This document shows positions 1 to 22,633 of a stretch of 64,000 nucleotides of DNA, piece by piece. Position numbers and translations under genes: made by a program. Below the pieces are notes generated by a model. It was not told where the DNA came from. It saw only the letters and a program-made list of their open reading frames with translations, and ran no database searches. Each line of letters opens with the position of its first letter. Position 1 is the first letter of the stretch. Source of the DNA: Escherichia coli (GTDB taxonomy: Bacteria; Pseudomonadota; Gammaproteobacteria; Enterobacterales; Enterobacteriaceae); the NCBI RefSeq assembly GCF_011045215.1, contig NZ_CP049201.1; one strand, given 5' to 3'.

Positions 1-147
1 GGCGTGGCCCGGGGCATCACGCTTCATACCGCGGTGAAGGACGACGACAGCGAGGTGGCCGGGATTATCCGCGCACTGCTTGCTGGTGAGGAAAACGCCA
101 GGCTGCGTGCAGCCCACTGGTTACATGAGAGGGGGCTGAAAGTATGA
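1..147 (+). CDS. 3' end of an upstream phage late-region ORF (partial, function unknown)
   Basis: Frame 1 is open from the window edge to TGA at 145-147, overlapping the ATG of the next gene (ATGA coupling). No family recognised from the 48 visible residues. Confidence 0.35.
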   Translation, partial: GVARGITLHTAVKDDDSEVAGIIRALLAGEENARLRAAHWLHERGLKV

Positions 148-521
148 AGCTGATTCTGCCTTTTCCACCCAGCGTGAACACCTACTGGCGACACCCCAAC
201 AAAGGGGCATTTGCTGGTAAGAGCCTGATAAGCGCGGCGGGGCGAAAATTCCAGAGTGCGGCGTGCACAGCAATAGTTGAGCAGTTACGTCGTCTGCCGA
301 AACCAACGTCGGCACCTGCTTCAGTGGAGATCGTGTTGTTTCCTCCGGATAACCGGATCCGCGATCTGGACAACTATAACAAGGCGCTGTTTGACGCCCT
401 GACCCACGCGGGTGTGTGGGAAGACGACAGCCAGGTGAAAAGAATGCTGGTGGAGTGGGGACCGGTTATCCCGGAAACGGATGTTGCGGGTTGTTGTTCT
501 GCGGGTTCTGTTCTTCGTTGA
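144..521 (+). CDS. RusA-family Holliday-junction resolvase-like protein
   Basis: 125-aa ORF with motifs LPFPPSVNTYWRH and RIRDLDNYNKALFDALTHAGVWEDDSQV, matching the RusA signature ([41 protein letters not shown]) including the acidic catalytic residues. Confidence 0.6.
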   Translation: MKLILPFPPSVNTYWRHPNKGAFAGKSLISAAGRKFQSAACTAIVEQLRRLPKPTSAPASVEIVLFPPDNRIRDLDNYNKALFDALTHAGVWEDDSQVKRMLVEWGPVIPETDVAGCCSAGSVLR

Positions 522-689
522 CATGAGGTTGCCCCGTATTCAGTTTCGCTGATTTGTATTGTCTGAAGTTGTTTTTACGTTAAGTTGATGCAGATCAATT
601 AATACGATACCTGCGTCATAATTGATTATTTGACGTGGTTTGATGGCGTAGATGCACGTTGTGACATGTAGATGATAATTATTATCATT

Positions 690-905
690 TTGCGGGTCCT
701 TTCCGGCGATCCGACATGTTACGGGGCGGCGACCTCGCGGGTTTTCGCTATTTATGAAAATTTTCCGGTTTAAGGCGTTTCCGTTCTTCTTCGTCGTAAC
801 TTAATGTTTTTATTTAAAATACCCCCTGAAAAGAAAGGAAACGACAGGTGCTGAAAGCGAGCTTTTTGGCCTCTGTCGTTTCCTTTCTCTGTTTTTGGCC
901 GTGGA
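690..905 (+). other. Lambda-type cos site (cosQ-cosN-cosB); cosN 12-nt cohesive-end sequence GGGCGGCGACCT at about 724-735
   Basis: ...gggtcctttccggcgatccgacatgttacg/gggcggcgacctcgcgggttttcgctatttatgaaaattttccggtttaaggcgtttccg... is near-identical to the joined right and left ends of phage lambda as I recall them, and sits immediately upstream of Nu1. Confidence 0.85.
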
Positions 906-912
906 ATGAACA

Positions 913-1458
913 ATGGAAGTCAACAAAAAGCAGCTGGCTGACATTTTCGGTGCGAGTATCCGTACCATTCAGAACTGGCAGGAACAGGGAATGCCCGTTC
1001 TGCGAGGCGGTGGCAAGGGTAATGAGGTGCTTTATGACTCTGCCGCCGTCATAAAATGGTATGCCGAAAGGGATGCTGAAATTGAGAACGAAAAGCTGCG
1101 CCGGGAGGTTGAAGAACTGCGGCAGGCCAGCGAGACAGATCTCCAGCCAGGGACTATTGAGTACGAACGCCATCGACTTACGCGTGCGCAGGCCGACGCA
1201 CAGGAGCTGAAAAATGCCAGAGACTCCGCTGAAGTGGTGGAAACCGCATTCTGTACTTTCGTGCTGTCGCGGATCGCAGGTGAAATTGCCAGTATTCTCG
1301 ACGGGATCCCCCTGTCGGTGCAGCGGCGTTTTCCGGAACTGGAAAACCGACATGTTGATTTCCTGAAACGGGATATCATCAAAGCCATGAACAAAGCAGC
1401 CGCGCTGGATGAACTGATACCGGGGTTGCTGAGTGAATATATCGAACAGTCAGGTTAA
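913..1458 (+). CDS. nohD: Phage terminase small subunit Nu1 (DNA-packaging protein)
   Basis: 181-aa product MEVNKKQLADIFGASIRTIQNWQEQGMPVLRGGGKGNEVLYDSAAVIKWY... is essentially identical to lambda Nu1; its 3' end overlaps the start of gene A as in lambda. Confidence 0.95.
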   Translation: MEVNKKQLADIFGASIRTIQNWQEQGMPVLRGGGKGNEVLYDSAAVIKWYAERDAEIENEKLRREVEELRQASETDLQPGTIEYERHRLTRAQADAQELKNARDSAEVVETAFCTFVLSRIAGEIASILDGIPLSVQRRFPELENRHVDFLKRDIIKAMNKAAALDELIPGLLSEYIEQSG

Positions 1459-2452
1459 CAGGCTGCGGCATTTTGTCCGCGCCGGGCTTCGCTCACTGTT
1501 CAGGCCGGAGCCACAGACCGCCGTTGAATGGGCGGATGCCAATTACTATCTCCCAAAAGAATCCGCATACCAGGAAGGGCGCTGGGAAACACTGCCCTTT
1601 CAGAGGGCCATCATGAATGCGATGGGCAGTGACTACATCCGCGAGGTGAATGTGGTGAAGTCTGCCCGTGTTGGTTATTCCAAAATGCTGCTGGGTGTTT
1701 ATGCCTACTTCATAGAGCATAAGCAGCGCAATACCCTTATCTGGTTGCCGACGGATGGTGATGCCGAGAACTTTATGAAAACCCACGTTGAGCCGACTAT
1801 TCGTGATATTCCGTCGCTGCTGGCGCTGGCCCCGTGGTATGGCAAAAAGCACCGGGATAACACGCTCACCATGAAGCGTTTCACCAATGGGCGTGGCTTC
1901 TGGTGCCTGGGCGGTAAAGCGGCAAAAAACTACCGTGAAAAGTCAGTGGATGTGGCGGGTTATGATGAACTTGCTGCCTTTGATGAGGATATTGAACAGG
2001 AAGGCTCTCCGACGTTCCTGGGCGATAAGCGTATTGAAGGCTCGGTCTGGCCAAAGTCCATCCGTGGCTCCACGCCCAAAGTGAGAGGCACCTGCCAGAT
2101 TGAGCGTGCAGCCAGTGAATCCCCGCATTTTATGCGTTTTCATGTTGCCTGCCCGCATTGCGGGGAGGAGCAGTATCTTAAATTTGGCGACAAAGAGACG
2201 CCGTTTGGCCTCAAATGGACGCCGGATGACCCCTCCAGCGTGTTTTATCTCTGCGAGCATAATGCCTGCGTCATCCGCCAGCAGGAGCTGGACTTTACTG
2301 ATGCCCGTTATATCTGCGAAAAGACCGGGATCTGGAGGGGAATACCAACATCGCCGGTGTCACGGTGGTGTTCCGGGCAGGTGAACAGGAGCAGACACCG
2401 CCGGAGGGATTTGAATCCTCCGGATCCGAGACGGTGCTGGGTACGGAAGTGA
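1433..2452 (+). pseudogene. Terminase large subunit (lambda gpA) N-terminal ~300 codons, truncated; A-like sequence ends near 2335 and the ORF runs on out of frame to 2452
   Basis: MNISNSQVNRLRHFVRAGLRSLFRPEPQTAVEWADANYYLPKESAYQEGRWETLPFQRAIMNAMGSDYIREV...CEKTGIW matches lambda gpA, then continues as unrelated residues RGIPTSPVSRW... gpA is ~640 aa in lambda. Confidence 0.85.
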
Positions 2453-2823
2453 AATACGACACGCCGATCACCCGGACCATCACGTCTGCAAACATCGACC
2501 GTCTGCGCTTTACCTTCGGTGTGCAGGCACTGGTGGAAACCACCTCAAAGGGGGACCGGAATCCATCGGAAGTCCGCCTGCTGGTTCAGATACAACGTAA
2601 CGGTGGCTGGGTGACGGAAAAAGACATCACCATTAAGGGCAAAACCACCTCGCAGTATCTGACCTCGGTGGTGGTGGGTAACCTGCCGCCGCGCCCGTTT
2701 AATATCCGGATGCGCAGGATGACGCCGGACAGCACCACAGACCAGCTGCAGAACAAAACGCTCTGGTCGTCATACACCGAAATCATCGATGTGAAACAGT
2801 GCTACCTTCTGCCCGTAAGGTGA
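2338..2823 (+). pseudogene. Internal fragment (~160 codons) of lambda-like tail-tip/host-specificity gene J, with no N-terminus or C-terminus
   Basis: Translation ...VVFRAGEQEQTPPEGFESSGSETVLGTEVKYDTPITRTITSANIDRLRFTFGVQALVETTSKGDRNPSEVRLLVQIQRNGGWVTEKDITIKGKTTSQY...IIDVKQCY matches the middle of lambda J. It is in a different frame from the truncated A and ends in unrelated sequence. Confidence 0.8.
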
Positions 2824-4004
2824 ATGGTAAGGCGCTTTCAGCGGATATAACACTGACGCCGAAAGATATTGGTACGCTTAACTCAACAACAATGTCATTC
2901 AGCGGTGGTGCTGGTTGGTTCAAATTAGCAACGGTAACCATGCCACAGGCGAGTTCTGTTGTTTCAATTACGTTGATTGGTGGAGCTGGATTTAACGTGG
3001 GGTCACCTCAACAGGCAGGTATATCTGAACTTGTTTTGCGTGCAGGTAATGGTAATCCGAAGGGGATTACTGGTGCTTTATGGCAGCGCACATCGACAGG
3101 GTTTACAAATTTTGCCTGGGTCAATACATCTGGTGATACTTACGATATTTACGTTGCAATCGGAAATTATGCGACTGGTGTAAATATTCAATGGGATTAT
3201 ACCAGTAATGCCAGCGTGACGATTCATACGTCACCAGCATATTCTGCTAATAAGCCGGAAGGGTTAACGGACGGTACAGTTTATTCACTCTATACGCCAT
3301 CAGAACAGTTTTATCCGCCTGGCGCACCAATCCCGTGGCCATCAGATACCGTTCCGTCTGGCTATGCCCTGATGCAGGGGCAGACTTTTGACAAATCTGC
3401 CTACCCGAAACTTGCAGTCGCTTATCCGTCAGGCGTGATCCCTGATATGCGTGGCTGGACGATTAAGGGCAAGCCCGCCAGTGGTCGTGCCGTATTGTCT
3501 CAGGAACAGGACGGCATTAAATCGCATACCCACAGCGCCAGCGCATCCAGTACGGATTTGGGTACGAAAACCACATCGTCGTTTGATTACGGAACCAAAT
3601 CCACGAATAACACCGGGGCGCATACCCATAGTATTAGCGGGACTGCAAATAGTGCCGGTGCGCACCAACACAAGAGTTCCGGTGCATTTGGTGGCACGAA
3701 CACGAGCATTTTTCCTAATGGTTATACTGCGATTTCAAATCCAAGCGCGGGGATTATGAGCACAACAAGCGGTACTGGCCAGACTCGTAATGCAGGGAAG
3801 ACATCATCAGATGGTGCTCATACCCACTCACTGTCCGGCACTGCTGCAAGCGCAGGTGCACACGCACATACTGTCGGTATTGGTGCTCATACGCACTCCG
3901 TTGCGATTGGTTCACATGGACACACCATCACCGTTAACGCTGCTGGTAACGCGGAAAACACCGTCAAAAACATCGCATTTAACTATATTGTGAGGCTTGC
4001 ATAA
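2799..4004 (+). CDS. Side tail fibre protein, C-terminal receptor-binding portion with His-box repeats (probably a 5'-truncated remnant using an internal GTG)
   Basis: 401-aa ORF with repeated GAHTHS/GAHQH/GAHAHT/GSHGHT motifs and a C-terminal ...[22 protein letters not shown] typical of lambdoid Stf and T4 gp37-like fibre tips. Its stop overlaps the tfa start (TAATGG). The N-terminal tail-attachment region expected for Stf is absent. Confidence 0.65.
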
Positions 4005-4585
4005 TGGCATTCAGAATGAGTGAACAACCACGGACCATAAAAATTTATAATCTGCTGGCCGGAACTAATGAATTTATTGGTGAAGGTGACGCATATATTC
4101 CACCTCATACAGGTCTGCCAGCAAACAGTACCGATATTGCACCGCCAGATATTCCGGCAGGCTTCGTGGCTGTTTTCAACAGTGATGAGGCATCGTGGCA
4201 TCTTGTTGAAGACCATCGGGGTAAAACGGTTTATGACGTGGCTTCCGGCGACGCGTTATTTATTTCTGAACTCGGCTTATTACCGGAAAATGTCACCTGG
4301 TTATCCCCGGAAGGGGAGTTTCAGAAGTGGAACGGCACAGCCTGGGTGAAAGATGCAGAAGCAGAAAAACTGTTCCGGATCCGGGAGGCGGAAGAAACAA
4401 AAAACAACCTGATGCAGGTAGCCAGTGAGCATATTGCGCCACTTCAGGATGCTGTAGATCTGGAAATCGCAACGGAGGAAGAAAACTCGTTGCTGGAAGC
4501 CTGGAAGAAGTATCGGGTGTTGCTGAACCGTGTTGATACATCAACTGCACCTGATATTGAGTGGCCTGTAATACCAGAAGTTTAA
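4004..4585 (+). CDS. Tail fibre assembly protein (Tfa)
   Basis: 193-aa ORF translationally coupled to stf; the C-terminus ...[49 protein letters not shown] is the conserved Tfa motif. Confidence 0.85.
4431..4543 (+). repeat. Direct repeat copy 1: 3' segment of tfa (about 88% identical to 8260-8373)
   Basis: atattgcgccacttcaggatgctgtagatctggaaatcgcaacggaggaagaaaactcgttgctggaagcctggaagaagtatcgggtg... is nearly repeated at 8260-8373. Confidence 0.8.
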
Positions 4586-4589
4586 AATA

Positions 4590-4617
4590 AAAGCCCGCTT
4601 AAAATATCGCGGGCTTC
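4590..4617 (-). terminator. Hairpin (aaagcccgc...gcgggcttt) with a T-run on the minus strand; candidate terminator for the minus-strand catalase operon and possibly for tfa
   Basis: Inverted repeat aagcccgc / gcgggctt between convergent tfa and catalase genes; the minus-strand reading gives the stem followed by TTATTTTA. Confidence 0.5.
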
Positions 4618-4704
4618 GAAATATAAATGTATTTTCAGAGGCTAGAGCTTAGGATATCTCAGCGGCAATTAACTTATGAGGGATAGCTAAATACCAGAAG
4701 ATAA

Positions 4705-5595
4705 TTAGTTTTTACTATTTATCTTTGTTTGTGGTTCTCCTTCAGCAAGCTCAGCGCCAGTGACAGGATTGATGTCTTCATGGGATTTCAACCTTGTTGC
4801 CATAGCTTTTATCATAGCTTCTTGCTTGGTCGAAAGATTTATCGAGGCCTTCCCATCCCCACCGTCAACCGCTGGAACTGGATCGGAAATATAGTCAAAG
4901 TTTTCATCACTGTTCCAACTACCTCTGACGTCTTCACCTTCTGACATGTTGTAATATACGTTTTTGTATTTCTCAATTGGTGGTAATTTTCCTGGTGGAA
5001 AGGTGTTGCGAATTGAATGTAATGCTTTTTCAAATGAAAGCATGTGTGCTGCTTCCCTGGTCATTAAAAATGCCAGAGTGTCTTTTACTCCAGGATCATC
5101 AGTAACATTAATGAGACGTTCGTAAATGATCTTTGCCCGAGCTTCAGCTGCAATATTTGAACGAAGATCGGCCGTGACTTCGCCAATAGTATCAACATAA
5201 GCTGCAGTCCAGGGTACTCCAGCTGAATTAGTTAATGCTGGGCCTCCTCCGTAGAGGAGAGAAGTTATATGGCTGTCATTGCCATTTTGAGTTAAGGAAC
5301 GGTAAAGCTCAGCTTCATTCTCAGTTCCTTCAGCAAGTGCTCCTTTTGCACCTTTGTTGAGCATACCAACAAGAGAACCAATAATTTCGAGATGACTTAG
5401 TTCTTCTGTTGCTATGTCCATCAGCATATCCCTTCGGCCTGCATCTTCATCACTTAAGCCTTGAGTGAAGTATCGGCATGCTGCTGCAAGCTCACCCTGT
5501 GGCCCGCCGAATTGTTCTAAAAGTAGATTAGCCAAGCCTGGGTTTGGCTCACTTACACGTACTGTATATTGAAGTTTTTTCACGTGTCTAAACAT
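4705..5595 (-). CDS. Manganese (non-haem) catalase, KatN-like
   Basis: 296-aa product with ferritin-like Mn-catalase architecture (…EELSHLEIIGSLV…, …TREAAHMLSFEKAL…). It is last in a yciG-yciF-yciE-catalase gene order, as in the Salmonella yciGFE-katN operon. Confidence 0.8.
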   Translation of the reverse strand: MFRHVKKLQYTVRVSEPNPGLANLLLEQFGGPQGELAAACRYFTQGLSDEDAGRRDMLMDIATEELSHLEIIGSLVGMLNKGAKGALAEGTENEAELYRSLTQNGNDSHITSLLYGGGPALTNSAGVPWTAAYVDTIGEVTADLRSNIAAEARAKIIYERLINVTDDPGVKDTLAFLMTREAAHMLSFEKALHSIRNTFPPGKLPPIEKYKNVYYNMSEGEDVRGSWNSDENFDYISDPVPAVDGGDGKASINLSTKQEAMIKAMATRLKSHEDINPVTGAELAEGEPQTKINSKN

Positions 5596-5613
5596 AATGC
5601 CTCCTCAAAAGAA

Positions 5614-6120
5614 TTATTTTTTGGCTTCAACTCCATCAATTTCAGATCTGACCATGAATTGCTCAGTGGTGTCAGGAATATGGTTAAGAAGCCATTCAGC
5701 CATTTGTTTTTCTTCATTAAGAATTGCTTCAATAATGGGTACTGAAGCTGTATCACCCGCATTTTTGGCTGCTGCGAGAAGAGATGTGTAGCACGCAATT
5801 TCAAATTGTTCGAAAACATAGCCACTGATCGAACCTTTGACAATTTCATCAGATGGAAAAATTCCACCAATGGATTGCCCAAACGCGGCCATTTTACTCA
5901 TAGAGTCTTTAATGACAGAGCGCGAAATATTATTACGATCAAGTATGCTTTCAAGCTGTGAAAGCTGGTTCTTTGTTTCGCTAATGTGCTGCTCAATTCT
6001 GGAACGTAACTCTGGATAGTTTTCTATCCGGCTGGCCATAGACTCAAGCATTTTTTCAGCTTGTTTCTCCATCGCATGTGCATCACGAAGCCAGTCATGG
6101 TAATGTTCAATTCTATTCAT
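5614..6120 (-). CDS. YciE-like ferritin-like/DUF892 stress protein
   Basis: 168-aa product MNRIEHYHDWLRDAHAMEKQAEKMLESMASRIENYPELR... closely resembles E. coli YciE. Confidence 0.85.
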   Translation of the reverse strand: MNRIEHYHDWLRDAHAMEKQAEKMLESMASRIENYPELRSRIEQHISETKNQLSQLESILDRNNISRSVIKDSMSKMAAFGQSIGGIFPSDEIVKGSISGYVFEQFEIACYTSLLAAAKNAGDTASVPIIEAILNEEKQMAEWLLNHIPDTTEQFMVRSEIDGVEAKK

Positions 6121-6156
6121 AATCTGTTTATCCTAAAAGAAATTGAAGTCTATAGT

Positions 6157-6663
6157 TCAGGAGTTATCCTGAGCTTTTTTATTAACGTTATTAAATGCCA
6201 GGTCTGTTAATTTGACATCAGTAGCTTTTTCCTCTTCCAGTGTTTCTTTCAGGAGTTTAGCCGCTTTTTTATATCCTAATTGCTCAGCGAGTGTTACCAA
6301 AGTGCCATAACTGGCAATTTCATAGTGCTCTACTTTTTGTGCTGCAGCAATCAATGCAGCATCACGTACTTCATTTTTATCAGTGCTTTCAATTACCTCA
6401 TTCGCCTCTTCGATAAGTCCTTCCATTGCGGCACACTTAATTCTTTTCAATTTAAGACCATCTTCAGAATCAACAATCTGATCGATGCGTTCAATTTGAC
6501 CATGTGTCTCATCAAGATGTGACTGAAAAGCAGCGGTTAATTTATCACTATATGCAGAGCGACTAAGTTTAGACAGTGCCTTTGTTAGTTGTTTCTCAGC
6601 GCTGTATGTATCCGATAATAAGTGGATGAAGATATCTTCAACAGATTTAATTTGCATAATCAC
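6157..6663 (-). CDS. YciF-like DUF892 stress protein
   Basis: 168-aa product ...VEDIFIHLLSDTYSAEKQLTKAL...EVRDAALIAAAQKVEHYEIASYGTL... closely resembles E. coli YciF. Confidence 0.85.
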   Translation of the reverse strand: MIMQIKSVEDIFIHLLSDTYSAEKQLTKALSKLSRSAYSDKLTAAFQSHLDETHGQIERIDQIVDSEDGLKLKRIKCAAMEGLIEEANEVIESTDKNEVRDAALIAAAQKVEHYEIASYGTLVTLAEQLGYKKAAKLLKETLEEEKATDVKLTDLAFNNVNKKAQDNS

Positions 6664-6735
6664 TCCAGAGTTTTCACTGCGAGCCCGTAGGCTCGCAGTT
6701 AGCTTCAGTTATTCACGAATGTAGGGGATGATAAA

Positions 6736-6918
6736 TTAAGAGTCAGATTTACGGCCGCCACCATGGCTATTCTGACCACCTTTTTTCCCTGCTTCTGATG
6801 CTCTTTGTGGATCGTTTTTAAAATTACCGCCACTATGTTGGCCGCCTTTACGACCAGCGTCAGAAGCTTTTTGTCGATCTTCAGCGAAATTACCTGCACC
6901 GCCACGATGTTCGGTCAT
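6736..6918 (-). CDS. YciG-like KGG-repeat general stress protein
   Basis: 60-aa product MTEHRGGAGNFAEDRQKASDAGRKGGQHSGGNFKNDPQRASEAGKKGGQ... with KGG repeats, resembling YciG/YmdF; first gene of the four-gene minus-strand operon. Confidence 0.8.
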   Translation of the reverse strand: MTEHRGGAGNFAEDRQKASDAGRKGGQHSGGNFKNDPQRASEAGKKGGQNSHGGGRKSDS

Positions 6919-7383
6919 ATCATTTCTCCTCTGATTTTCAAATTGTAAATAACATGTGCCTTGTCAGCACCCAATTAACTCTAGTAACAAATAAGAAAGT
7001 GTCAAATAACAGATTGGTATGCGCATTTTGATGTGAGAAATAATAATTGTAAAAATGTGCGCTCAGTGAGTATAATCTATTGATATCTTAGTGATTAACG
7101 GAAAATTTAGGTTGTAACTCAAAAGATTAATAAACCTAAATTTACATTTCTATATTATTTGGTGTGCCTGTTGTTGTTTTTCTCAATAAGAATACTCTGT
7201 AAAATAATTCAATCGTAAGATGGTTGTTATTCATATTTTTTTGAGATAGTTCCTAATAGGGTCCATCCCTTGAATAAATAATTGTTTTAAAATTTCGTCT
7301 AAAGAACTAATTACAAGAAAATTTATATAGTCCAAGGAATCATGATTGTACTTAACCATAAGATTTGAGCGTAAAAATTAATG

Positions 7384-7414
7384 CGCAGCACGTCGTATGC
7401 AAGAACGTGCTGCG
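7384..7414 (-). terminator. Rho-independent terminator candidate downstream of the methyltransferase gene
   Basis: 9-bp perfect stem cgcagcacg / cgtgctgcg; on the minus strand it is followed by ATTAATTTTT. Confidence 0.55.
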
Positions 7415-7422
7415 GTTGGATG

Positions 7423-8091
7423 CTATTTTTTCCCTGAAGCGGAAAACATTACTACAGTACCTTGAACCTTGGTTTTAACATTCTCGAAATGCTCTGAGAG
7501 TATATGTGTTAAGCCTTCTTCGGAATCTCTTGTGTTTGAAAAGATGCCTTTCTGATTGTAAATGCGCATCAGTTTTTGACCGAAGCGATTGTGCACAATT
7601 CCATCGCCAAGAATTGTGGCTCCGTATAGAGTTCCATCGCCAGTTAAGGCCTGCGCCGCATTGCGTATTACACAGCTTTTTGTAGATATATTTCCAGGCA
7701 GGCAGTGAAGAAGGTAAAACATGGAAATGGAATCAAATTGACCATGTAACGCCGCGGGATAAGGTTCAAAAACATCATGGCTAATTTTATGTTTAATTTT
7801 TGATTCCCCAGCCCTTGTAGATGCCGCGTTCAGGCTAGCTTCGTTCAAATCCATTAAAGATATCAGACTACTCTCAGGTACGTGAGTAAGGTAAAACCCA
7901 GTTCCAACACCAATATCCAGATGGTTGTTACCTAAATGTTCCAGAAAGTGTGGAAGAAGGTGTTCCTTTGTAGGACATCCCCATGCAAGCCGATTTGATA
8001 CTCCCAAAACCCACCAGTCATAAAGCTTTAGGGTAAGTGGTGTGTAAATTTTAGCCCCATCATCTGTGTTTTTTTTCATTAATTTCACCAT
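7423..8091 (-). CDS. ybcY: Class I SAM-dependent methyltransferase (YbcY-like), apparently intact
   Basis: 222-aa ORF with the SAM-binding motif LDIGVGTGFY and a Rossmann-type methyltransferase layout. It occupies the ybcY position of DLP12, between the tfa copies. Confidence 0.7.
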   Translation of the reverse strand: MVKLMKKNTDDGAKIYTPLTLKLYDWWVLGVSNRLAWGCPTKEHLLPHFLEHLGNNHLDIGVGTGFYLTHVPESSLISLMDLNEASLNAASTRAGESKIKHKISHDVFEPYPAALHGQFDSISMFYLLHCLPGNISTKSCVIRNAAQALTGDGTLYGATILGDGIVHNRFGQKLMRIYNQKGIFSNTRDSEEGLTHILSEHFENVKTKVQGTVVMFSASGKK

Positions 8092-8147
8092 GTTATAGTT
8101 TTATTTGTGAATTAAATCAATTATGGCAATGAATTACAAGGGGTTAA

Positions 8148-8453
8148 ATGCTGCCGCAGCATGGCGATATTGAAATAGCCTGGTATGCTTCAATACAGCA
8201 GGAGCCGAATGGCTGGAAGACCGTCACCACACAGTTCTACATCCAGGAATTCAGTGAGTATATTGCGCCACTGCAGGATGCTGTAGATCTGGAAATCGCA
8301 ACGGAGGAAGAAAGATCGTTGCTGGAGGCATGGAATAAATATCGGGTATTGTTGAATCGTGTTGATACATCAGTAGCTCTGGGTATGAAGCTGTTTGTAA
8401 CTCATGTTACAGTAACAGCCATTACTATCTCGAAGGTGCAAAATGTATATTGA
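8148..8453 (+). pseudogene. tfaX: Tail fibre assembly gene remnant (tfaX-like), carrying only part of the Tfa C-terminal domain
   Basis: 101-aa ORF with ...[38 protein letters not shown]... but no Tfa N-terminal half, and a divergent C-terminal tail. Confidence 0.7.
8260..8373 (+). repeat. Direct repeat copy 2: tfa 3' segment (pairs with 4431-4543)
   Basis: tattgcgccactgcaggatgctgtagatctggaaatcgcaacggaggaagaaagatcgttgctggaggcatggaataaatatcgggta... Confidence 0.8.
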
Positions 8454-8581
8454 TTTGATATTTTATAAATTTACTTCGAATCTGGCACGTCAACTTTTGA
8501 TTAAAGTAATATCAGTTTTCGGCGAAAAAAGGACCGTGTACATGAGACGATTTCATACAAGAATAACAAAAATATGAATAT

Positions 8582-8615
8582 GCTCCCAATGCAATATATG
8601 TTTTGCATTGGGAGC
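8582..8615 (-). terminator. Rho-independent terminator candidate for the peptidase gene
   Basis: 12-bp stem gctcccaatgca / tgcattgggagc; the minus-strand reading is followed by a T-rich run. Confidence 0.55.
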
Positions 8616-8636
8616 AAATAGCGGAATATTTTGAAA

Positions 8637-10121
8637 TTATTGTATTTCTGCTTCAGAATTTCCTGGGCAGTATATATTTTCTATTTTTTGTGGAGTGATC
8701 AGGTGATGTACAACTGCTTTATCTACACATAAATTAACTCCGGTGAGAGCTAATGTATGCCCATCACCATTTATTGTTAGTAACGGGCTGGAAAATTTCT
8801 CTGCCATCTTACGGGCATTAATCCAGGGCGTTGTTGGATCGTATTTGTGTGCTACAAACAGTAAACCAGAGGGCAGAACAGTATTTTTCAGGCGAGTTTT
8901 GTTCAGGTCGCTATGTATTGGCCATAATTCACAAAAATCAGGTGAATCGGAACGTCCATTGTCAAAGTTAATAGCCGGGAAGGCATTCGCAAGAGCCTCT
9001 TTTCGGAATTTTCGCTCTTCTGGTGTTAATTGCTCATCCCCCTGATCTACACAAAGGATTACCCCCGAAGCATCACTTGACTCTTCTGAGGCTATCGGAG
9101 CACTGAGCGCAGTTTCAATTTCATTACTGACAATCCCCTGAGAGAACTGGCGTATGGCAGTTGCAAGGGTTGGCCATGATGAACGCCATAGCAGAAGGTC
9201 TGTTGTTAATGATATGAGTTCATCTGAAGATATATTTTCTCCCTTACTGTCTAATAAAGGTTTGTGATGTAATTTTGATAATAGCTCATGGAACTGAGTT
9301 ATTGCCTTATCTCTGTCTGAAGAAAGCGGGCAACTTTTTGTACGCGCACACCAGGATGCAAAGCGATCAAACGTTTCCTGATAACTCTGTGCCTGTTTGA
9401 GTTGCCATGTGAAGTTGTTCTCCAGGTCATCGATATCGACGACTCCATCAAGAACGATAGATCTTACGTTGTAGGGAAAACGTTCTGCATATAAGGCTGC
9501 AATTTGAGTTCCATACGAATACGCCACGGCTGTCAGTTGTTTATCCCCCAAGGCTTGCCTAATACGATCAATATCGTATACAGCCTCGTTAGAGCCGATA
9601 TGGCGAATGACTTCGGCTCCGGTATTATGGATACAGGCATTAATTTTATTTAATACTTGTTGCTTTTCGGTTATGTTTTCCTGAGTCTCTGTATCTGATT
9701 GTCGGCAGTTTATTGTCGGAGTGGACTGTCCGACGCCTCGAGGATCAAATCCAATAATATCCCATGACTCACGAAGATTTGTGACTGGCCAGTCAAAGTT
9801 AATATAAGGATTTATGCCTGGCAACCCGGGACCACCACTTATTATCAGGATACTTCCTTTATGCTTGCTTTTTGCCGGCAATTTTGTCAACGCTAGTTTG
9901 ACTTGTGATTTTTTTTCATAAGAAGCATCTCCGCCTGTGTCTGTATATTTTAATGGAACAGACAAATAACCACATAGTAAGTCAGGAGACGGTTTTTCCT
10001 CACCAAACCAGTGGTTGAATTGACTGGCCATACAGGATTGCCACTGTATCTGCTGGGCAGATACGGTTACTGGTAGAAGTAACGTTAAAACAACTTTGAA
10101 ATGAGTAATTATTTTTCGCAT
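8637..10121 (-). CDS. Secreted alpha/beta-hydrolase, S33-type (tripeptidyl/prolyl aminopeptidase-like) peptidase
   Basis: 494-aa ORF with an N-terminal signal peptide (MRKIITHFKVVLTLLLPVTVSA), a GGPGLPG oxyanion-type motif and a nucleophile elbow VAYSYGTQ (G-x-S-x-G variant). Confidence 0.65.
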   Translation of the reverse strand: MRKIITHFKVVLTLLLPVTVSAQQIQWQSCMASQFNHWFGEEKPSPDLLCGYLSVPLKYTDTGGDASYEKKSQVKLALTKLPAKSKHKGSILIISGGPGLPGINPYINFDWPVTNLRESWDIIGFDPRGVGQSTPTINCRQSDTETQENITEKQQVLNKINACIHNTGAEVIRHIGSNEAVYDIDRIRQALGDKQLTAVAYSYGTQIAALYAERFPYNVRSIVLDGVVDIDDLENNFTWQLKQAQSYQETFDRFASWCARTKSCPLSSDRDKAITQFHELLSKLHHKPLLDSKGENISSDELISLTTDLLLWRSSWPTLATAIRQFSQGIVSNEIETALSAPIASEESSDASGVILCVDQGDEQLTPEERKFRKEALANAFPAINFDNGRSDSPDFCELWPIHSDLNKTRLKNTVLPSGLLFVAHKYDPTTPWINARKMAEKFSSPLLTINGDGHTLALTGVNLCVDKAVVHHLITPQKIENIYCPGNSEAEIQ

Positions 10122-10260
10122 TGTGTCTCTGAATATCGGAATAAAGATAAAATTTGAATATATTGAGGTCTTGTGTTGCGGTAAGAGATTACACGTTATG
10201 ACATAGGTTAAATGCTTACAAAATTAGTGGATATTGTCTACTTGTAACTGTAAACAAATT

Positions 10261-10287
10261 CCCCGGGGTTATACAATACCACCGGGG
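10261..10287 (-). terminator. Hairpin (ccccgggg...ccgggg) downstream of ompT; candidate terminator
   Basis: GC-rich inverted repeat about 20-45 nt past the ompT stop on the minus strand. Confidence 0.4.
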
Positions 10288-10307
10288 AGAAAATCTGGTT
10301 AACTTCG

Positions 10308-11261
10308 TTAAAAGGTGTACTTAAGACCAGCAGTAGTGATGAAGTTATAGTTTTCTATGCCTGCACCATTTTTGCTGTAGTCTGAAGTGTTATCATTGTG
10401 ATCATAAAGTGAAGTATTACCTTTTTTATTCGTAACCCGATTCCATGCGCCTTCAACATAAACTTTTGCGTTAGGTGTTACGTAATAACCTGCATTGACT
10501 GCAACAGAATAGTAATTTTGGTCTTTGACCTTACTGCGATAAGTGATTCTTTTTCCCGGGTCATAGTGTTCATCGTTATCAGATGATTCCACCCAGCCGC
10601 TGTATTTAAATGTGCCACCGAGTTCAAAATCTTCATAACGATAACTTCCAGTCAAGCCAATGTAGGGCATTTTAAAACGTTGTTTGTAGCCGATTGCTCT
10701 TTCTCCATTCGGGAAGGAGCCGATATCATCTCTGAATCCCTCCTCAGAACTGTAGATATAGGAACCACCTCTGGCTGTAAAGCTATAACGGCTTTCCTGA
10801 TATCCGGCCATGAGTCCCAGGCGGTAATTGGGTTCGTTGAGGAGCCAGCCTTTGATATTCAGATCAAATTCGTTGGCATAATTGAGTTGTGTATCAGGGT
10901 GCTTACTTTCATCTGTCCAGGTTCCGGGGTTACTGGAATCCATCCAGTCCTGATCGACCATATTGCCACCCCGGCTGCCGAGAGTAGTCCAGCCCGCAGC
11001 CCCAATAGATATCTGGGGCATCAAATCCCAATTAATTGCACCTTTAATAATTGCAGCGTTATTGAATTTCCAGTCGAGTTGACTGACTTTTCGGCCTCCT
11101 TCTTCAGCTAGATAAACGCGCTCTTTTGTTTTTCCGCTCAGAGTTCCAAGACTAATGTCCACATTTATGTTGTCAGGAGTAAACGATATAGTCTCGGTAG
11201 AAGCAAAAGAGCTGATCGCAATAGGGGTTGTCAGGACTATTCCCAGAAGTTTCGCCCGCAT
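10308..11261 (-). CDS. ompT: Outer-membrane protease VII (omptin)
   Basis: 317-aa product MRAKLLGIVLTTPIAISSFASTETISFTPDNINVDISLGTLSGKTKERVYLAEEGG... matches OmpT nearly residue for residue. Confidence 0.95.
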   Translation of the reverse strand: MRAKLLGIVLTTPIAISSFASTETISFTPDNINVDISLGTLSGKTKERVYLAEEGGRKVSQLDWKFNNAAIIKGAINWDLMPQISIGAAGWTTLGSRGGNMVDQDWMDSSNPGTWTDESKHPDTQLNYANEFDLNIKGWLLNEPNYRLGLMAGYQESRYSFTARGGSYIYSSEEGFRDDIGSFPNGERAIGYKQRFKMPYIGLTGSYRYEDFELGGTFKYSGWVESSDNDEHYDPGKRITYRSKVKDQNYYSVAVNAGYYVTPNAKVYVEGAWNRVTNKKGNTSLYDHNDNTSDYSKNGAGIENYNFITTAGLKYTF

Positions 11262-11684
11262 AAAAGTTCTCCATTCAATCGTTTTAATGATTGAATATGT
11301 ATTTTTTATATCTAACTTAATGAGTCAATTACATATTGCTCCACTGTTTATATTTTGTTTAGTATTGAATGATTATCACAATGCGCTATCTATTTTTGGT
11401 TTAATTATCTGTTATTGTTTCATATTGCGGTTTTACTGTGTGTTTTTTTTATGCTTTTGTGGTGCTTTTATCTATTTAAGTGCCATGCCTTTAGAGGCAT
11501 ATAAGCGAAAATAGCACGAGGTTTATCCTCAATTGCTATGTTTTTTAGTACAAAAAAGAGGGACAAAACTGAGACACATAAGGCCTCACAATGGCTTGCA
11601 AGGCTTTACATGTTTTGAGGTAGTGGGACGTGTGAGCGCAGAGATGGCGCGGTAAGTTGTTGACTTAAAATGTCGTTCTAGGAA

Positions 11685-11729
11685 CTTCTAAGTCGTGGGC
11701 CGCAGGTTCGAATCCTGCAGGGCGCGCCA
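11685..11729 (+). other. Prophage attR: duplicated 3' ~45 nt of tRNA-Arg (argU); a tRNA fragment, not a functional gene
   Basis: cttctaagtcgtgggccgcaggttcgaatcctgcagggcgcgcca is the 3' half of argU, with no matching 5' half or D-arm upstream. This is the expected right junction of an argU-integrated prophage. Confidence 0.85.
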
Positions 11730-11774
11730 TTTCTTCTTCATTTATGCCCGTCTTATCCGTTTCCGCTTTGCCCT

Positions 11775-12536
11775 TCACCACATCACTTTTTGTCGCTGTT
11801 TGGCGAGATAATTCAACGGTGTCAGGCCGTAAAACGCCTTAAAAACAGAGATAAAGTACGACGTGCTGCTATAGCCACATAATTGCGCCACCTGAGTGAT
11901 ATTTTTGTTATCCATCAATAACATCTGTACGGCGTAACGCATACGACACTCTGTGACAATCTGGCTATAGCTGGTATTTTCGTTTTTTAATTTCTTTTTG
12001 AGCAGGCTGGGGCTTAAACATAGCGAACTGGCGACAATTCGCAGATTCCAGTAATGCTGAATATCGCTTTGAATAATGCGGCAGACGCTGTCGCGGACGC
12101 TGCTGCGTAAGATATACATCAGTAGGGCAATAAACCGCGATTGCTCAAGAAAGTTAGACAATACGGTAAAAAGCAATGCGCGCGTCAACTCCGCTTCGCA
12201 GGGTTTGCTGGGTTGCTGCTTGCTGTGGTTGGCGGCTAGCCGGAACACTTCCGGTGTACGGCTATGACAAGCGATAACCGGGGTAGCCAGCCGCGACCAG
12301 GGCTTTACACAGGTTAAGTTCTTATTTAAAAACAACAGATAATCGTTGATGATGTTACGGTTGATGTGGGTGATTAATACGTGATTTAACGTTGAGAGTT
12401 CAATGACGTTATTGTTGCACGCGAAGGCGGCCAGGTAGTTTTTCGGAAGGGTAAACGTAGCATGGTTATTGACGCTTACCTCTACCTCTTTTTCGGTCAG
12501 GATCACCACGCAAGGTTCACTGCTGCTCAATTGCAT
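11775..12536 (-). CDS. envY: AraC-family transcriptional regulator EnvY (porin thermoregulation)
   Basis: 253-aa product MQLSSSEPCVVILTEKEVEVSVNNHATFTLPKNYLAAFACNNNVIELS... with a C-terminal AraC HTH. Confidence 0.9.
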   Translation of the reverse strand: MQLSSSEPCVVILTEKEVEVSVNNHATFTLPKNYLAAFACNNNVIELSTLNHVLITHINRNIINDYLLFLNKNLTCVKPWSRLATPVIACHSRTPEVFRLAANHSKQQPSKPCEAELTRALLFTVLSNFLEQSRFIALLMYILRSSVRDSVCRIIQSDIQHYWNLRIVASSLCLSPSLLKKKLKNENTSYSQIVTECRMRYAVQMLLMDNKNITQVAQLCGYSSTSYFISVFKAFYGLTPLNYLAKQRQKVMW

Positions 12537-12718
12537 TTCGCACTCCTCAGATATCAGAAACTCCGCTCAAAGGATCTATGCTTCCTGCATGAGTGATCGG
12601 CCCGTTCGCCGATAACGATCTTCTTTCTTTAGCATGCTTTTTAGCAATTAATCTTGATGGAATTCTGACGAGAGCGAAAGAGGTAAGCCAGGTCGTACCC
12701 GACTTACCTGGAGGAGAT

Positions 12719-13609
12719 TTAATACTCGAGAATGCCGTGCGCGACGGGCAAATAGCGCAGAGAGAAATAGAGAGTGTCTTTACCGCAAGAGGAACGTTTC
12801 GCTAACAGCGAGGCAATTTCTGCGTCCGGTTTCGGTTTCGCTGTAAAGGTTTTGCCTTTGCCGGCGACAAACAGTTCATAAACAATGCCGCTTGCTGGGG
12901 CGGAGCTTTGGCAATCGGCGCTGGCCTGTAGATAACGTTCACGCTGTTCAGCGGTAAGTTTATTCACGCCGCTGCCATCCTGTACCCAGACATTAACGCC
13001 GGTTGCTTTAACGTGTTCCAGCAGTTGGCGATAGCCATCGGGCGACATGTTTCCGGCGAAAAAACTACTGATATAAACCGGTTTTGCTGAAACATCGCTA
13101 ATCAGCCGCTGCGCGTTGTTTAACCATGTTAGCAAAGGCTGACGGGCGGCTTCGCTGCGCCAGTTCAGGTCGTCAATTTCCGCGCTGATGTACCAGCCAT
13201 CCGGCGTTACGCCAGGCGCGGCGCTCCATAATCTGGCTTGCTGGAGATCGGCAGCCAGCAGGCGATTAAGATAGCTTTCCAGCGCTGCGGACGACTGTTT
13301 CTGGTGCATAAAAAATTCCGGATCGGCGTTCAGCCCGACAATCAGCTTCAGGCCAGCCTGTTGCGCAGCTGCGGCCCGCTTAAACAATAACGTGCGCTGT
13401 TCTGGCTGGGTAAATGCATCGCCGTAACGGGTCCATTGCAAAACCAGGGTATCGAAGCCTTGCAAACGTAACTGACTCATCAGCCCCTGCCACTGGGTAT
13501 CGGTAACCTGACTATCACGGTTTTGTGGTTGCCAGATAATACCTTTCATCGCAAAGGAAAAAGGGCTGACCAAAAGCAGTGTCAGCAATACGAAAATGAA
13601 CTTACGCAT
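12719..13609 (-). CDS. ybcH: DUF4434-family periplasmic protein YbcH
   Basis: 296-aa product with signal peptide MRKFIFVLLTLLLVSPFSFA; matches YbcH. Confidence 0.85.
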   Translation of the reverse strand: MRKFIFVLLTLLLVSPFSFAMKGIIWQPQNRDSQVTDTQWQGLMSQLRLQGFDTLVLQWTRYGDAFTQPEQRTLLFKRAAAAQQAGLKLIVGLNADPEFFMHQKQSSAALESYLNRLLAADLQQARLWSAAPGVTPDGWYISAEIDDLNWRSEAARQPLLTWLNNAQRLISDVSAKPVYISSFFAGNMSPDGYRQLLEHVKATGVNVWVQDGSGVNKLTAEQRERYLQASADCQSSAPASGIVYELFVAGKGKTFTAKPKPDAEIASLLAKRSSCGKDTLYFSLRYLPVAHGILEY

Positions 13610-18806: not shown

Positions 18807-18955
18807 ACAAAAACCTTACATTAACGCTGGTTATGTTTAGGGTGGCGTATATTAAGGTTTTTTATGAATTGTGACAGCTTTTTACCATTAATAGGTATGA
18901 CTATTGCGGCACGTTATTTTTACACTGGTTATAAAAGTTGCCGTTTGCTGAAGGA

Positions 18956-20398
18956 TTAAGCGGGTAATGTGATAACAAATCTTGTTCCCCGCGCATCTGA
19001 CGTTACTGCAACCGTGCCTTTATGTGCGACAACAATCGATTTCACTATCGCCAGCCCAATGCCGCTACCTTCGCCTTTTCGTTGGCGGGAGGGGTCAACG
19101 CGGTAGAAACGGTCAAACAATCGCGGTAAGTGCTCGGGCGCAATGGGCGTACCGGGGTTTTCGACGATAACTTGCACCAGATGATCGACCGTCTGGCAGC
19201 GCACTACAATAGCCTCTCCGGGTGGCGTATAACGCAGGGCGTTCGAAAGCAGGTTGCTTAACGCCCGACGCAGCATCAGCGGATCGCCCGCAACCTGGCA
19301 CTCGTCGCCAACAAACTGCAGCTCCACGCCGCGATCTTCCGCTAAAGCCTCGAAAAAATCGAACACTTTGCCGACTTCATCCGCCAGGTTGAGCATTTTC
19401 TTTTCGGGGATTAACTGGTTGTTATCGGCCTGGGCGAGAAACAGCATATCGCTGACCATTTTCGCCATTCGCGTCAGCTCTTCGAGATTAGAGTAGAGCA
19501 CATCTTCCAGCTCCTTCTGGCTGCGCGACTGGCTGAGGGCGATTTCCGTTTGCGTTATGAGATTAGTAATTGGTGTGCGAATTTCGTGGGCGATATCCGC
19601 TGAGAAATTGGACTGGCGGGTAAAGACATCCTCAATACGCTCGATCATATGGTTGAACGACAGTACCAGCTGTTCCAGCTCAATCGGCACGGTCTGCGGG
19701 TCAAGGCGGACGTCGAGATCTTTCGAGGTGATATTCTGGATTTGACGGCTGACGCTGCGGATCGGCGCGTGACCTTTATGAACCGCCAATAGCACGATAA
19801 AGACGATCAGGATGCTGATGACCGATGCGGTCATAATAAGTTTATTCATCAAATCATTTATGTAATGAAGATGAAAATCGATCGAAAGCGCGATGTAGAG
19901 CGTATAAATCGGTTTGCCGTCAACCAGTGAGCCAACTGGCAAACTGATCATCCGCCAGTTGCTGTGTTCCATATGCCCGTGACCGTGGCCTGGCATCATC
20001 ATCGTCGGGCCGGAGAGGAGAAACACCTCGCCGCCCCGCGCGTCTTTATCGGGTATGGCATCGCGCGCAAACTCGCGGATATCAGGCGCACCGGGGGAGT
20101 GATACACCGTTTTACCGTGGCTATCTGCCAGGGAAATCAACACATTGGAATAACCACTGACGATATCTTCCAGCGTCATTAAGCGTCGGGCTTGCGTTTC
20201 GTCAGGGTGATTTAGTACGCGTTCAAGGGTGGCACTAATCTCTTTTAAATCATTAATATCCTGCTCGGCAAAATGCACTTTTACTGAGTGGATCATGATC
20301 CATGCAAAGGCGAAAAACGCCGCGATGGTGGCCAGGCTGATAAAAAAGGTCAGGCGGGTTGCCAGCGAAAACGGGCGCTGAAATGGCTTACTGACCAT
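18956..20398 (-). CDS. cusS: Copper/silver-sensing histidine kinase CusS
   Basis: 480-aa product from [28 protein letters not shown]...; HAMP, HisKA (H-box [10 protein letters not shown]) and HATPase domains; overlaps cusR. Confidence 0.9.
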
Positions 20399-21071: not shown

Positions 21072-21136
21072 ATTTCCTCCGCATGTTGCCCGGGCAATTC
21101 TAGAGTAGCGGGATCAGATGGCAATCGCTTATTGGC

Positions 21137-21158
21137 AAAATGACAATTTTGTCATTTT
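21137..21158. promoter_or_regulatory. CusR box: perfect palindrome AAAATGACAATTTTGTCATTTT in the divergent cusR/cusC promoter region
   Basis: Palindrome read directly in the sequence; matches the described CusR-binding motif between cusR and cusC. Confidence 0.8.
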
Positions 21159-21227
21159 CCTGTCACCGGAAAATCAGAGCCTGGCGAGTAAAGTTGGCGG
21201 TATAAAATCACCAGAAATTATGAGCCT

Positions 21228-22610: not shown

Positions 22611-22633
22611 TTTTTAACTCCAGGAGAGAATAA

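Follow-up and report, generated by a model that had tools for sequence, protein, structure and literature searches.

Lambda terminase packages DNA with a polarity directed toward Nu1 and A (PMC4669245, PMC4856287), and terminases of the lambda type complete packaging only at a downstream cosQ and cosN. The terminases of lambda-type wild phages and of N15 are documented as compatible with lambda cos, and N15 terminase packages lambda DNA too. The closest chromosomal relatives of the locus described here are found in the K-12 relics DLP12 and Qin, and the DLP12-type cos-nohD relic is already known as an ordinary object. DLP12 (qsr') carries a cos-nohD-aaaD' segment, with a lambda-like cosQ-cosN-cosB, a full-length nu1 homolog and a truncated A, upstream of ompT-envY-ybcH-nfrAB-cus. 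Its nu1, R and Rz genes function in lambda (PMC3945230), its 3.5-kb cos patch recombines with lambda (PMC545071), and hosts whose defective prophages contain cosN-lambda are avoided in work with lambda (PMC4669245). Ten of 19 recombination junctions adjoin cos, and recombination to the left of cos is stimulated by breaks there (PMC3945230). This clustering could stem from cuts in lambda's own cos. A cos mutant is said to have been reverted by recombination with a defective prophage, in work by Fisher and Feiss from 1980, and lambda terminase reportedly cuts the E. coli chromosome, as described by Kotani and co-workers in 1992.

Packaging that starts at a chromosomal cos is likewise not a new idea; it corresponds to in situ packaging from an integrated cos. 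docL-type particles are linked to excision-defective lambda lysogens. In excision-defective lambda, in situ packaging at the integrated cos gives immature virions (Sternberg & Weisberg 1975, as cited in PMC8008629). Lateral transduction of the pac type (S. aureus 80alpha-like phages, Salmonella P22) is also directional from a chromosome-embedded packaging site, but pac-type terminases cut by headful and fill successive heads without a second site, whereas lambda-type enzymes need cosQ and cosN. According to the current literature, lateral transduction is not among the activities of cos phages (PMC12829572, PMC8575938). E. coli cos-type PICIs (the EcCICFT073 family) are also chromosomal, carry a lambda-like cosQ and cosN and require helper terminase; they are defined by cosQ and cosN without helper-type cosB, followed by rpp (PMC9026076). 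PICIs encode Rpp, which retargets TerS, and they excise and replicate to yield unit-length cos-to-cos DNA.

The window, the whole 64,000-nucleotide stretch of E. coli DNA analyzed here, begins within a nin/rusA region, and the left part of the element, where a DLP12-family prophage would have intD and be inserted at argU, lies beyond it. We compared it with lambda (NC_001416) by blastn. Positions 473–2336 correspond to lambda 48251–48502 joined to 1–1614 at 98% identity overall (Table 1). The right-end portion, including cosQ, is 95.2% identical over 252 bp, and 724–2336 is 98.5% identical to lambda 1–1614 with a single 1-bp gap. Placed just upstream of ompT-envY-ybcH-nfrAB-cusSRCFBA and arranged as cos-nohD-truncated A-tfa, this lambdoid remnant is, as judged from its sequence, the cos-nu1-A' stump of a DLP12-family cryptic prophage. 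The neighborhood is syntenic with K-12 and with NZ_OZ282453. Downstream, ompT (∼10.3 kb), cus (∼19–27 kb) and entD/fepA…entH (∼33.6–53.7 kb) are collinear with K-12, the gene content that the original prediction had listed.

Table 1. Features of the cos-nu1-A' relic and its flanks, in window coordinates
Feature	Position	Strand	Remarks
rusA-like gene, truncated	144..472	+	Pfam RusA PF05866
Chi octamer GCTGGTGG	446..453	+	270 bp left of cosN nick
Lambda right-end homolog	473..723	+	= lambda 48251-48502
cosQ heptamer GGGTCCT, termination signal	694..700	+	= lambda 48473-48479, identical
Near-private G>T, 7 bp left of top-strand nick	717	+	lambda 48496; outside 22-bp cosN
cosN, 22 bp	719..740	+	identical to lambda -5..+17
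I2 spacer (lambda bp 18-49; elsewhere 18-50)	741..772 (or -773)	+	identical to lambda, including critical bp 30-35
cosB	773..888	+	R3 773-788; I1 (IHF) zone 789-831; R2 832-847, inverted; R1 873-888
nu1/nohD-type small terminase subunit, full length, 181 aa	913..1458	+	Pfam PF07471
Truncated large terminase subunit A'	1433..2452	+	lambda-like 1433-2336, then 38 unrelated codons
Internal fragment of tail tip gene J	2335..2806	+	lambda 15670-16141, 96.6% identity; Pfam FNIII-A_GpJ
Side tail fiber gene (401 aa) and tail fiber assembly gene (193 aa)	2799..4585	+	right end of phage block

The cos region retains the complete lambda architecture. The cohesive-end 12-mer GGGCGGCGACCT occupies 724–735 within the partly symmetric cosN, so placed that the top strand would be expected to be nicked at 723|724 and the bottom strand at 735|736. 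The interval between cosQ and cosN is free of indels and has the lambda length, and lambda 1–72 is unchanged, which preserves the distance from cosN to R3. The role of and requirement for I2 have been described (PMC4856287, PMC9026076), and the extent of R3 is taken from PMC9026076. R3, R2 and R1 match lambda base for base and keep the order R3-I1-R2-R1; the inverted R2/R1 pair is also visible as a self-match of the window in blastn. IHF-consensus-like cores in I1, a predicted site, are the same as in lambda (802–814 and 797–809), and both substitutions near I1 fall outside them. Across 690–912 the window departs from lambda at 692, 707, 717, 796, 825 and 898 and by a 1-bp deletion at lambda 138, between R2 and R1; every one of these differences sits between cos subsites. 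The near-identity of cosQ, cosN and cosB claimed by the original prediction is therefore borne out by blastn and by subsite identity, its interval of 690–1458 correctly brackets cosQ to the nu1 stop codon, and the changes in cosN or the R sites that it named as evidence against itself are absent. With all known subsites and spacings as in lambda, this lambda-type cos appears sequence-competent for initiation.

Most of what separates this cos from lambda is ordinary variation among wild phages. All differences but one are common alleles in isolated lambda-type phages, and PhiR34_1, Kati, PhiR11_1 and 2H10 carry the alleles of the window. Those at 796 and 825 and the deletion between R2 and R1 are the majority alleles in wild lambda-type cos sites and also occur in isolated phages. 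The extra G at lambda position 138 is missing from 65 of 66 distinct wild cos sequences; there lambda is the outlier and the window has the common allele. cosQ is almost invariant among the 66 distinct lambda-type sequences. The exception is the G>T change at 717 (−7T). No exact full-length match to the window cos including −7T occurs among 8,085 E. coli cos places, 0 of 120 IMG/VR matches have −7T when any N is allowed at the position, and a search of genome contigs for other carriers returned none. The allele is present in five IMG/VR prophage contigs, in which cosB is different and the terminase and head-gene module appears complete. Nicking might be weakened by the change, which, however, falls outside the defined cosN and is seen in these apparently intact prophages.

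nu1 is full length, as had been predicted. Its product is identical to lambda Nu1 at 179 of 181 residues (A75T and L132I; the gene has three synonymous changes besides) and matches Phage_Nu1 over positions 1–164 of 164 with 336 bits (cut-off 30). The N-terminal winged-HTH, with its recognition helix at residues 17–24, and the C-terminal gpA-binding region are as in lambda (domain positions per PMC9026076 and PMC4669245). E. coli orthologs are annotated nohD or nohA. The truncation claimed for the large subunit also holds: lambda homology stops at 2336 (lambda 1614), codon 301 of 641, and the frame continues into the J fragment, from which the last 38 codons are read. Pfam finds GpA_ATPase alone in A' and detects no nuclease domain. 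The resident large subunit is thus predicted to be dead, and any activity would require a phage of lambda specificity, either superinfecting or resident in the same cell. Over its lambda-like part A' differs from lambda by 15 synonymous and 1 non-synonymous change, which argues that inactivation was recent, and an intact cos beside a recently inactivated gene needs no selective explanation. A sigma-70-like element at 659–688 is directed at cos and nu1; in a promoter and terminator scan of positions 1–2600, match counts equal the shuffled expectation.

An intact nu1 next to a partial A could in principle be a domesticated function, with resident Nu1, perhaps together with the gpA' stump, poisoning or titrating incoming lambda-type terminase, or with cos acting as a decoy that triggers abortive infection. 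The unchanged gpA-binding C terminus of Nu1, the N-terminal ATPase domain kept by gpA' and the promoter-like element aimed at cos and nu1 would suit such a role, and PICIs do block helper TerS via Rpp. However, promoter-like matches do not exceed chance, and deletion has removed Q together with the late promoter region. A' endpoints vary among relics, some of which lose part of nu1, so that no specific product is conserved. K-12, with two such relics, is the standard permissive lambda host, and DLP12 nu1 does not block lambda growth but supports it. We regard the probability of an interference role as close to negligible. Identity as a PICI was considered separately and rejected: the window relic has a full helper-type (lambda) cosB and Nu1, rpp is absent, and the window, unlike PICIs, holds no excision, replication or Rpp functions.

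The surroundings of the stump record extensive loss. Sequence to the left of lambda 48251 is replaced by rusA', whose 3' end abuts the lambda-like sequence 252 bp left of cosN; because of this direct junction the element has no Q, lysis genes or bor. On the right, lambda 1615–15669 is absent, and with it the head genes and most tail genes. The tail fiber block has partial homology to lambda stf/tfa and to stfQ/tfaQ of K-12 Qin (Pfam Collar, Phage_fiber, Caudo_TAP). Rfam has no match in the cos-nu1 feature; its sole match in positions 1–6000 is IS009, inside tfa. Lacking the C-terminal half of gpA and the head, tail, lysis and late genes, the element would not be a packaging-competent prophage with a self-sufficient terminase. 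Neither the rusA'/lambda junction nor the A'/J junction is spanned by any complete E. coli genome.

The same segment in K-12 has been shaped differently. DLP12, at the same locus, is 98.4% identical over 473–1740 and shares with the window its alleles at lambda 73 and 102, both different from lambda, as well as the deletion at 138, but upstream it still has Q (quuD), bor and the lysis genes, its A' ends at ∼lambda 1018 instead of being fused to J at 1614, and ybcY-tfaX-appY lies between tfa and ompT where the window has a Mn-catalase/ferritin-like cluster. Qin, at another chromosomal locus, has a lambda-type cos and nu1 98.1% identical over 473–1441, followed by stf/tfa genes related to those of the window; its deletion begins ∼17 nt before the nu1 stop codon and alters the NohA C terminus. 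R3 carries C53T in DLP12 and G54A in Qin, whereas that of the window is the lambda sequence; conversely, −7T is absent from DLP12. Compared with lambda itself, with which it shares all subsites and spacings, 179 of 181 Nu1 residues and A codons 1–301 with one amino acid change, the window element is integrated and non-replicating, and is without the nuclease and portal-binding half of gpA, head genes, most tail genes and a second cos.

We consider it probable that the stump is a young fossil, retained passively, with a cos that remains sequence-competent, and that a double-strand break, recombination and abortive head filling, rather than efficient co-transduction, are the outcomes to expect. 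When a phage of lambda packaging specificity grows in the cell, its terminase and IHF would assemble on R3-I1-R2-R1 and nick both strands of cosN; candidate helpers are lambda and the many wild lambda-type phages with 98–99% identical cos. Resident Nu1 would be dispensable for cutting, recombination or head filling. Terminase would find a single chromosomal cos among hundreds on phage concatemers, and this competition counts against cutting. Once both nicks were made, terminase would remain on the nu1 side, leaving the left end unprotected and exposed to RecBCD. The orientation of the Chi octamer would fit RecBCD moving leftward from a cut cos, given the established properties of Chi and RecBCD. 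The argument draws also on the left-side stimulation by cos breaks (PMC3945230). Processing of this end could make the locus a recombination hotspot and a reservoir of cos and nu1 alleles for infecting phages, as for K-12 DLP12. On the other side, a prohead may take up DNA rightward, from ompT through cus into most of ent/fep, as far as ∼49–52 kb in the window. Packaging could not terminate properly because no cosQ or cosN would be met rightward, and the expected products are immature, DNA-trailing heads like those of excision-defective lambda, not efficient transducing phage. The predicted mechanism is that of in situ packaging, with a start at a chromosomal cos, polar filling past A into host DNA and an improper end; excision-defective lambda, however, makes its own terminase and replicates in situ, whereas the window relic would depend on a foreign enzyme acting on a single-copy target.

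The original prediction had gone further, proposing that a helper terminase starts packaging here and co-transduces downstream DNA. Recognition and cutting are plausible and the polarity is toward ompT, cus and ent/fep, but co-transduction is unsupported. Cos-initiated lateral transduction, in which helper terminase delivers the adjacent 40–50 kb (ompT, cus, ent/fep) at meaningful frequency, would draw on an initiation half that is intact and correctly oriented, on the historical record of in situ packaging from integrated lambda cos, and on the abundance of lambda-type cos in E. coli, through which helpers and targets often coexist. It also needs a second co-oriented cosQ and cosN ∼38–51 kb downstream, and none is present. 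Beyond 724–735, the 64-kb window holds no further copy of the cohesive-end 12-mer with ≤1 mismatch, and a search for a second cos (12-mer, ≤1 mismatch; 22-mer, ≤6 mismatches) yielded none in 63 kb, the best cosN-like 22-mer elsewhere, at 57390, having 6 mismatches. The literature moreover denies lateral or generalized transduction for cos phages, and reads from purified lambda particles of a K-12 lysogen are “almost exclusively” lambda plus 25-kb flanks, with no peak reported outside the lambda region (PMC7667829; reads in PRJEB33536). Either abortive packaging leaves little DNase-protected DNA or a signal was simply not sought. K-12 MG1655 carries both the DLP12 cos, with nohD at 580,834, and the Qin cos; the lysogen of PMC7667829, a K-12 strain, may carry them too. 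Divergence of the window from K-12 and NZ_OZ282453 follows an ordinary mosaic (96.4–99.8% identity) without a step at headful distance, a weak test that says little about such transfer. Taken together, we find delivery at meaningful frequency very improbable. There is also a very slim chance that growth of a compatible lambdoid phage turns E. coli relic cos sites into origins of polar, cos-type lateral transfer at low frequency. Heads filled rightward from 724 with ompT-cus-ent/fep DNA would then be saved if nucleases trimmed off the trailing DNA or if terminase, on rare occasions, cut non-specifically. If such transfer occurred, the statement that cos phages do no lateral transduction would be incomplete. 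Only a demonstrated launch of genuine neighbor-gene transfer (ompT, copper/silver efflux, enterobactin) by relic cos sites would give the locus a bearing on the movement of chromosomal virulence and fitness loci.

At the other extreme, the site may only look intact and have no meaningful cutting or use in vivo, with no effect past ordinary homology, whether from its single copy, competition by phage concatemers, chromosomal topology or −7 G>T. The cos region is found in 3,969 of 5,426 complete E. coli genomes (∼73%), with ≤8 copies per genome. Deletion endpoints in A or at the end of nu1 differ between K-12 DLP12, K-12 Qin and FORC_081, and those of IMG/VR relics are scattered through nu1 and A. 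Preferential retention of cos-nu1 by relics was tried as an explanation and rejected on this scatter, in samples that were found via cos and are thus ascertainment-biased. Endpoints that follow no retention rule suit an unused site, as do the 15:1 synonymous excess in the dead A', which makes integrity a matter of youth, the lack of any reported DLP12 signal in lambda lysate sequencing, and the virtual absence of −7T from lambda-type cos sites. Against this, exchanges between lambda and the DLP12 cos patch are unusually frequent and cluster beside cos, every biochemically defined cos determinant is present, and other prophages carry −7T together with a packaging module that appears complete. 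We therefore think a wholly inert site unlikely, and favor the young fossil with a cos that can still be cut.

The significance of the locus is small beyond bookkeeping. Relic cos-nu1 segments are already recognized as homology patches and probable break sites, feeding phage mosaicism and rescuing phage cos and terminase mutations, and are a nuisance that lambda geneticists design around. The window copy is a clean example, with a cos that resembles those of functional wild phages more closely than the K-12 copies do, flanked by two lineage-specific deletions.

Aligned to lambda NC_001416, positions 473-723 of the window correspond to lambda 48251-48502 (95.2% identity) and positions 724-2336 to lambda 1-1614 (98.5% identity, with a single 1-bp gap). 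The cohesive-end 12-mer GGGCGGCGACCT is exact and is the sole copy in the 64 kb, 1 mismatch allowed. With subsite boundaries taken from published work (PMC4669245, PMC4856287, PMC9026076), the near-identity of cosQ, cosN and cosB to lambda put forward in the original prediction is borne out at each subsite; its coordinates for cos and Nu1, 690-1458, are correct, and the base changes in cosN or the R sites that it had set against itself are absent. The cosQ–cosN and cosN–R3 distances are also those of lambda, and the candidate IHF cores within I1 are unchanged. By every sequence criterion tested, the relic belongs to the lambda-type cos family.

Features of the relic and its right flank (window positions)
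Feature	Position	Strand	Remark
Chi octamer	446-453	+	270 bp left of cosN
Sigma-70-like element	659-688	+	GTGACA-16-TATCAT (10/12)
cosQ	694-700		GGGTCCT; identical to lambda
cosN	719-740		identical to lambda
Cohesive-end 12-mer	724-735		exact
I2	741-772		identical to lambda
R3	773-788		identical to lambda
I1 zone	789-831		
R2	832-847		identical to lambda
R1	873-888		identical to lambda
nu1	913-1458		
A'	1433-2336		truncated large-subunit gene
IS009 (RF02111)	4347-4545	+	227.6 bits, full length
Mn catalase	4705-5595	minus	tfa–ompT cargo
tfa fragment	8252-8372		within tfa–ompT cargo

From -90 to +190, the few differences between the window and lambda all lie between subsites. We aligned the window to the isolated lambda-type phages Kati, PhiR11_1, PhiR34_1 and 2H10, and to 66 distinct lambda-type cos sequences drawn from 120 IMG/VR contigs; the search pattern was fixed from -13 to +17 except at -7, so that segment is uninformative on variation in the IMG/VR set. 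Across the 66 sequences there is little variation in cosQ and the R sites but free variation in the spacers, where the window has the alleles common in the wild: 73G (51/66), 102C (46/66), a 1-bp deletion at lambda 138 (65/66), 176G (31/66) and -17C (53/66). The extra G at lambda 138, in the R2–R1 interval (window about 860/861), is absent from the window, K-12 DLP12, Qin and all four isolated phages. For R2–R1 spacing, laboratory lambda is the outlier.

The one unusual base in cos is a G-to-T change at -7 (position 717), just beyond the 22-bp cosN. Across 5426 complete E. coli genomes with 8085 cos places, the top-ranked full-length matches include no exact one, and T at -7 occurs in none of the 120 IMG/VR hits. 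An exact search found it in five IMG/VR prophage contigs (L133-L137), which have only positions 473-768 in common with the window (left flank, cosQ, cosN and the -7 T) and a different cosB from about lambda +45, with three AACCGGACATG-like repeat copies, one of them inverted (e.g., L137 2060-2480). In L137, the sole contig of the five examined downstream, ORFs of 169, 661 and 530 aa have the sizes of TerS, TerL and portal, so the -7 T is found together with what looks like a complete packaging module. The mosaic joint in the five contigs lies exactly on the I2/R3 border, a position consistent with cosB-terS being swapped as a specificity module.

The predicted full-length Nu1 and truncated large terminase subunit both hold. 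Nu1 has 181 aa and differs from lambda by two conservative substitutions, A75T and L132I, neither in the DNA-binding domain nor in the C-terminal gpA-binding region; its Pfam Phage_Nu1 match spans the profile end to end, placing it in that family by every sequence criterion tested. A' retains 301 of the 641 codons of the large subunit, within which Pfam detects the ATPase domain alone and no nuclease domain. It then enters, out of frame, a 472-bp piece of the tail tip gene J (lambda 15670-16141), followed by a side tail fibre gene and tfa. Relative to lambda, A' has 15 synonymous changes and 1 non-synonymous change (D185E). This divergence appears to date from the time of a functional gene, with little change after inactivation, and the synonymous excess implies that A' was either inactivated very recently or refreshed repeatedly by recombination with live phages. 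An intact cos is the expected look of a young relic and needs no selective explanation. A sigma-70-like element faces cos and nu1. It is improved over lambda by two bases (lambda -59 T>C and -36 C>T), both of them majority alleles among wild lambda-type cos flanks (49/66 and 45/66), and the promoter scan as a whole gives no excess over shuffled expectation. The element might be a lead to noh gene transcription, and only that.

Two deletion junctions bracket cos–nu1, at 472/473 (rusA' to lambda 48251) and 2336/2337 (A codon 301 to lambda 15670 in J). On the left, the truncated rusA-like gene is joined 252 bp upstream of cosN, which leaves the relic with no Q, lysis genes or bor. Neither junction is spanned in any of the 5426 complete genomes, though each half is common, which marks both as lineage-specific deletions. 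The cos region itself (at least 80% coverage) is present in 3969 of these genomes, in up to 8 copies, in agreement with the 74% of strains cited in PMC11389934 as carrying DLP12-like and Rac-like relics. The nearest relatives are the cos-noh segments of K-12 DLP12 (nohD) and Qin (nohA), which have the same cos–nu1 block but their own deletion endpoints, homology to the window stopping at 1740 and 1441, respectively. The endpoint of the FORC_081 relic is unlike all three. This DLP12-like relic (L007; NZ_CP029057 1807558-1823332), ordered rusA-quuD-lysis-bor-cos-nohD-A'-tail fibre, lies not at ompT but in the neighbourhood of lambda attB, a few kb away from ybhB-bioA-bioB, with transposase and integrase fragments between; its location may reflect rearrangement or a different insertion history. 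Among 59 IMG/VR loci with enough flank, 32 have full nu1-A, 13 another cosB, and homology stops inside A in 8 and inside nu1 in 6. There is no rule that relics specially spare cos–nu1.

The relic and its proposed mechanism, classical in situ packaging, are of known kinds. TerS and IHF bind R3-I1-R2-R1 and place TerL for nicking cosN; terminase keeps to the cosB end, moves that end into the prohead, and ends packaging only given a downstream cosQ and cosN (PMC4669245, PMC4856287, PMC9026076). The relic cos would be cuttable by a lambda-specificity phage growing in the same cell; many wild phages have a cos 98-99% identical, and lambda DNA is a substrate for N15 terminase as well (PMC4669245). 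Cutting would expose a left end, and the nearby Chi octamer GCTGGTGG is so oriented that it should act on RecBCD entering there and heading leftward. The + strand holds 18 Chi over 64 kb, so one near cosN by chance is possible (roughly 8%). Such an end beside Chi fits published K-12 data: lambda and DLP12 have 3.35 kb in common around cos, half of their recombination junctions adjoin cos, and nu1, R and Rz of DLP12 work in lambda (PMC3945230); duplications with lambda arise via the DLP12 cos patch (PMC545071). Lambda geneticists pick E. coli C for the very reason that it is free of cosN-lambda copies from defective prophages (PMC4669245).

Rightward filling would take in ompT, cus, pheP and entD-fepA-fes-entF-fepE-fepCGD-entS-fepB, to roughly window position 49-52 kb. 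No second cos was found within the 64 kb, so the expected product would be an immature, non-terminated head like that described for lambda defective in excision (Sternberg & Weisberg 1975, cited in PMC8008629). The original prediction was right on packaging polarity and downstream gene content (ompT, cus, ent/fep), collinear with K-12; its step from initiation to co-transduction is unsupported. According to recent papers on lateral transduction, cos terminases require a second cos, and cos phages carry out neither lateral nor generalized transduction (PMC8575938, PMC12829572). The lysate sequencing it proposed already exists, in effect, for a K-12 lambda lysogen, whose purified particles gave reads "almost exclusively" from lambda plus roughly 25 kb of flank to either side (PMC7667829); that study did not look specifically at DLP12, so a very weak signal there might have gone unseen. 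We consider meaningful cos-initiated transfer from the relic very improbable. The observation is confirmed and its interpretation partly supported. The relic failed to qualify as a lateral-transduction origin, with neither a second cos in the window nor a headful enzyme, and likewise as a self-sufficient packaging module or a cos-type PICI.

The relic sits at the DLP12 locus of E. coli, and its neighbourhood runs collinear to K-12 (about 98%). To the right of the relic stand a Mn-catalase/ferritin-like cluster, ompT, envY, ybcH, nfrAB, cusSRCFBA, pheP ... entD, fepA ... entH and cstA. At about 33490 there is no IS186/IS421; K-12 and NZ_OZ282453 have a copy between hokE and entD, which the alignment jumps across. 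Over 4600-24000, identity to the best complete genome reaches only 98.6%, so the carrier lineage is not within the 5426-genome collection; at least 80% of this interval, cargo arrangement included, is covered in 339 complete genomes. The tfa–ompT cargo (about 4700-10200) is unlike K-12, where ybcY-tfaX-appY stands, and includes yciE/yciF-type ferritin-like genes, a small general stress protein, a SAM methyltransferase and an alpha/beta hydrolase. The Rfam IS009 match lies within the tail fibre assembly gene.
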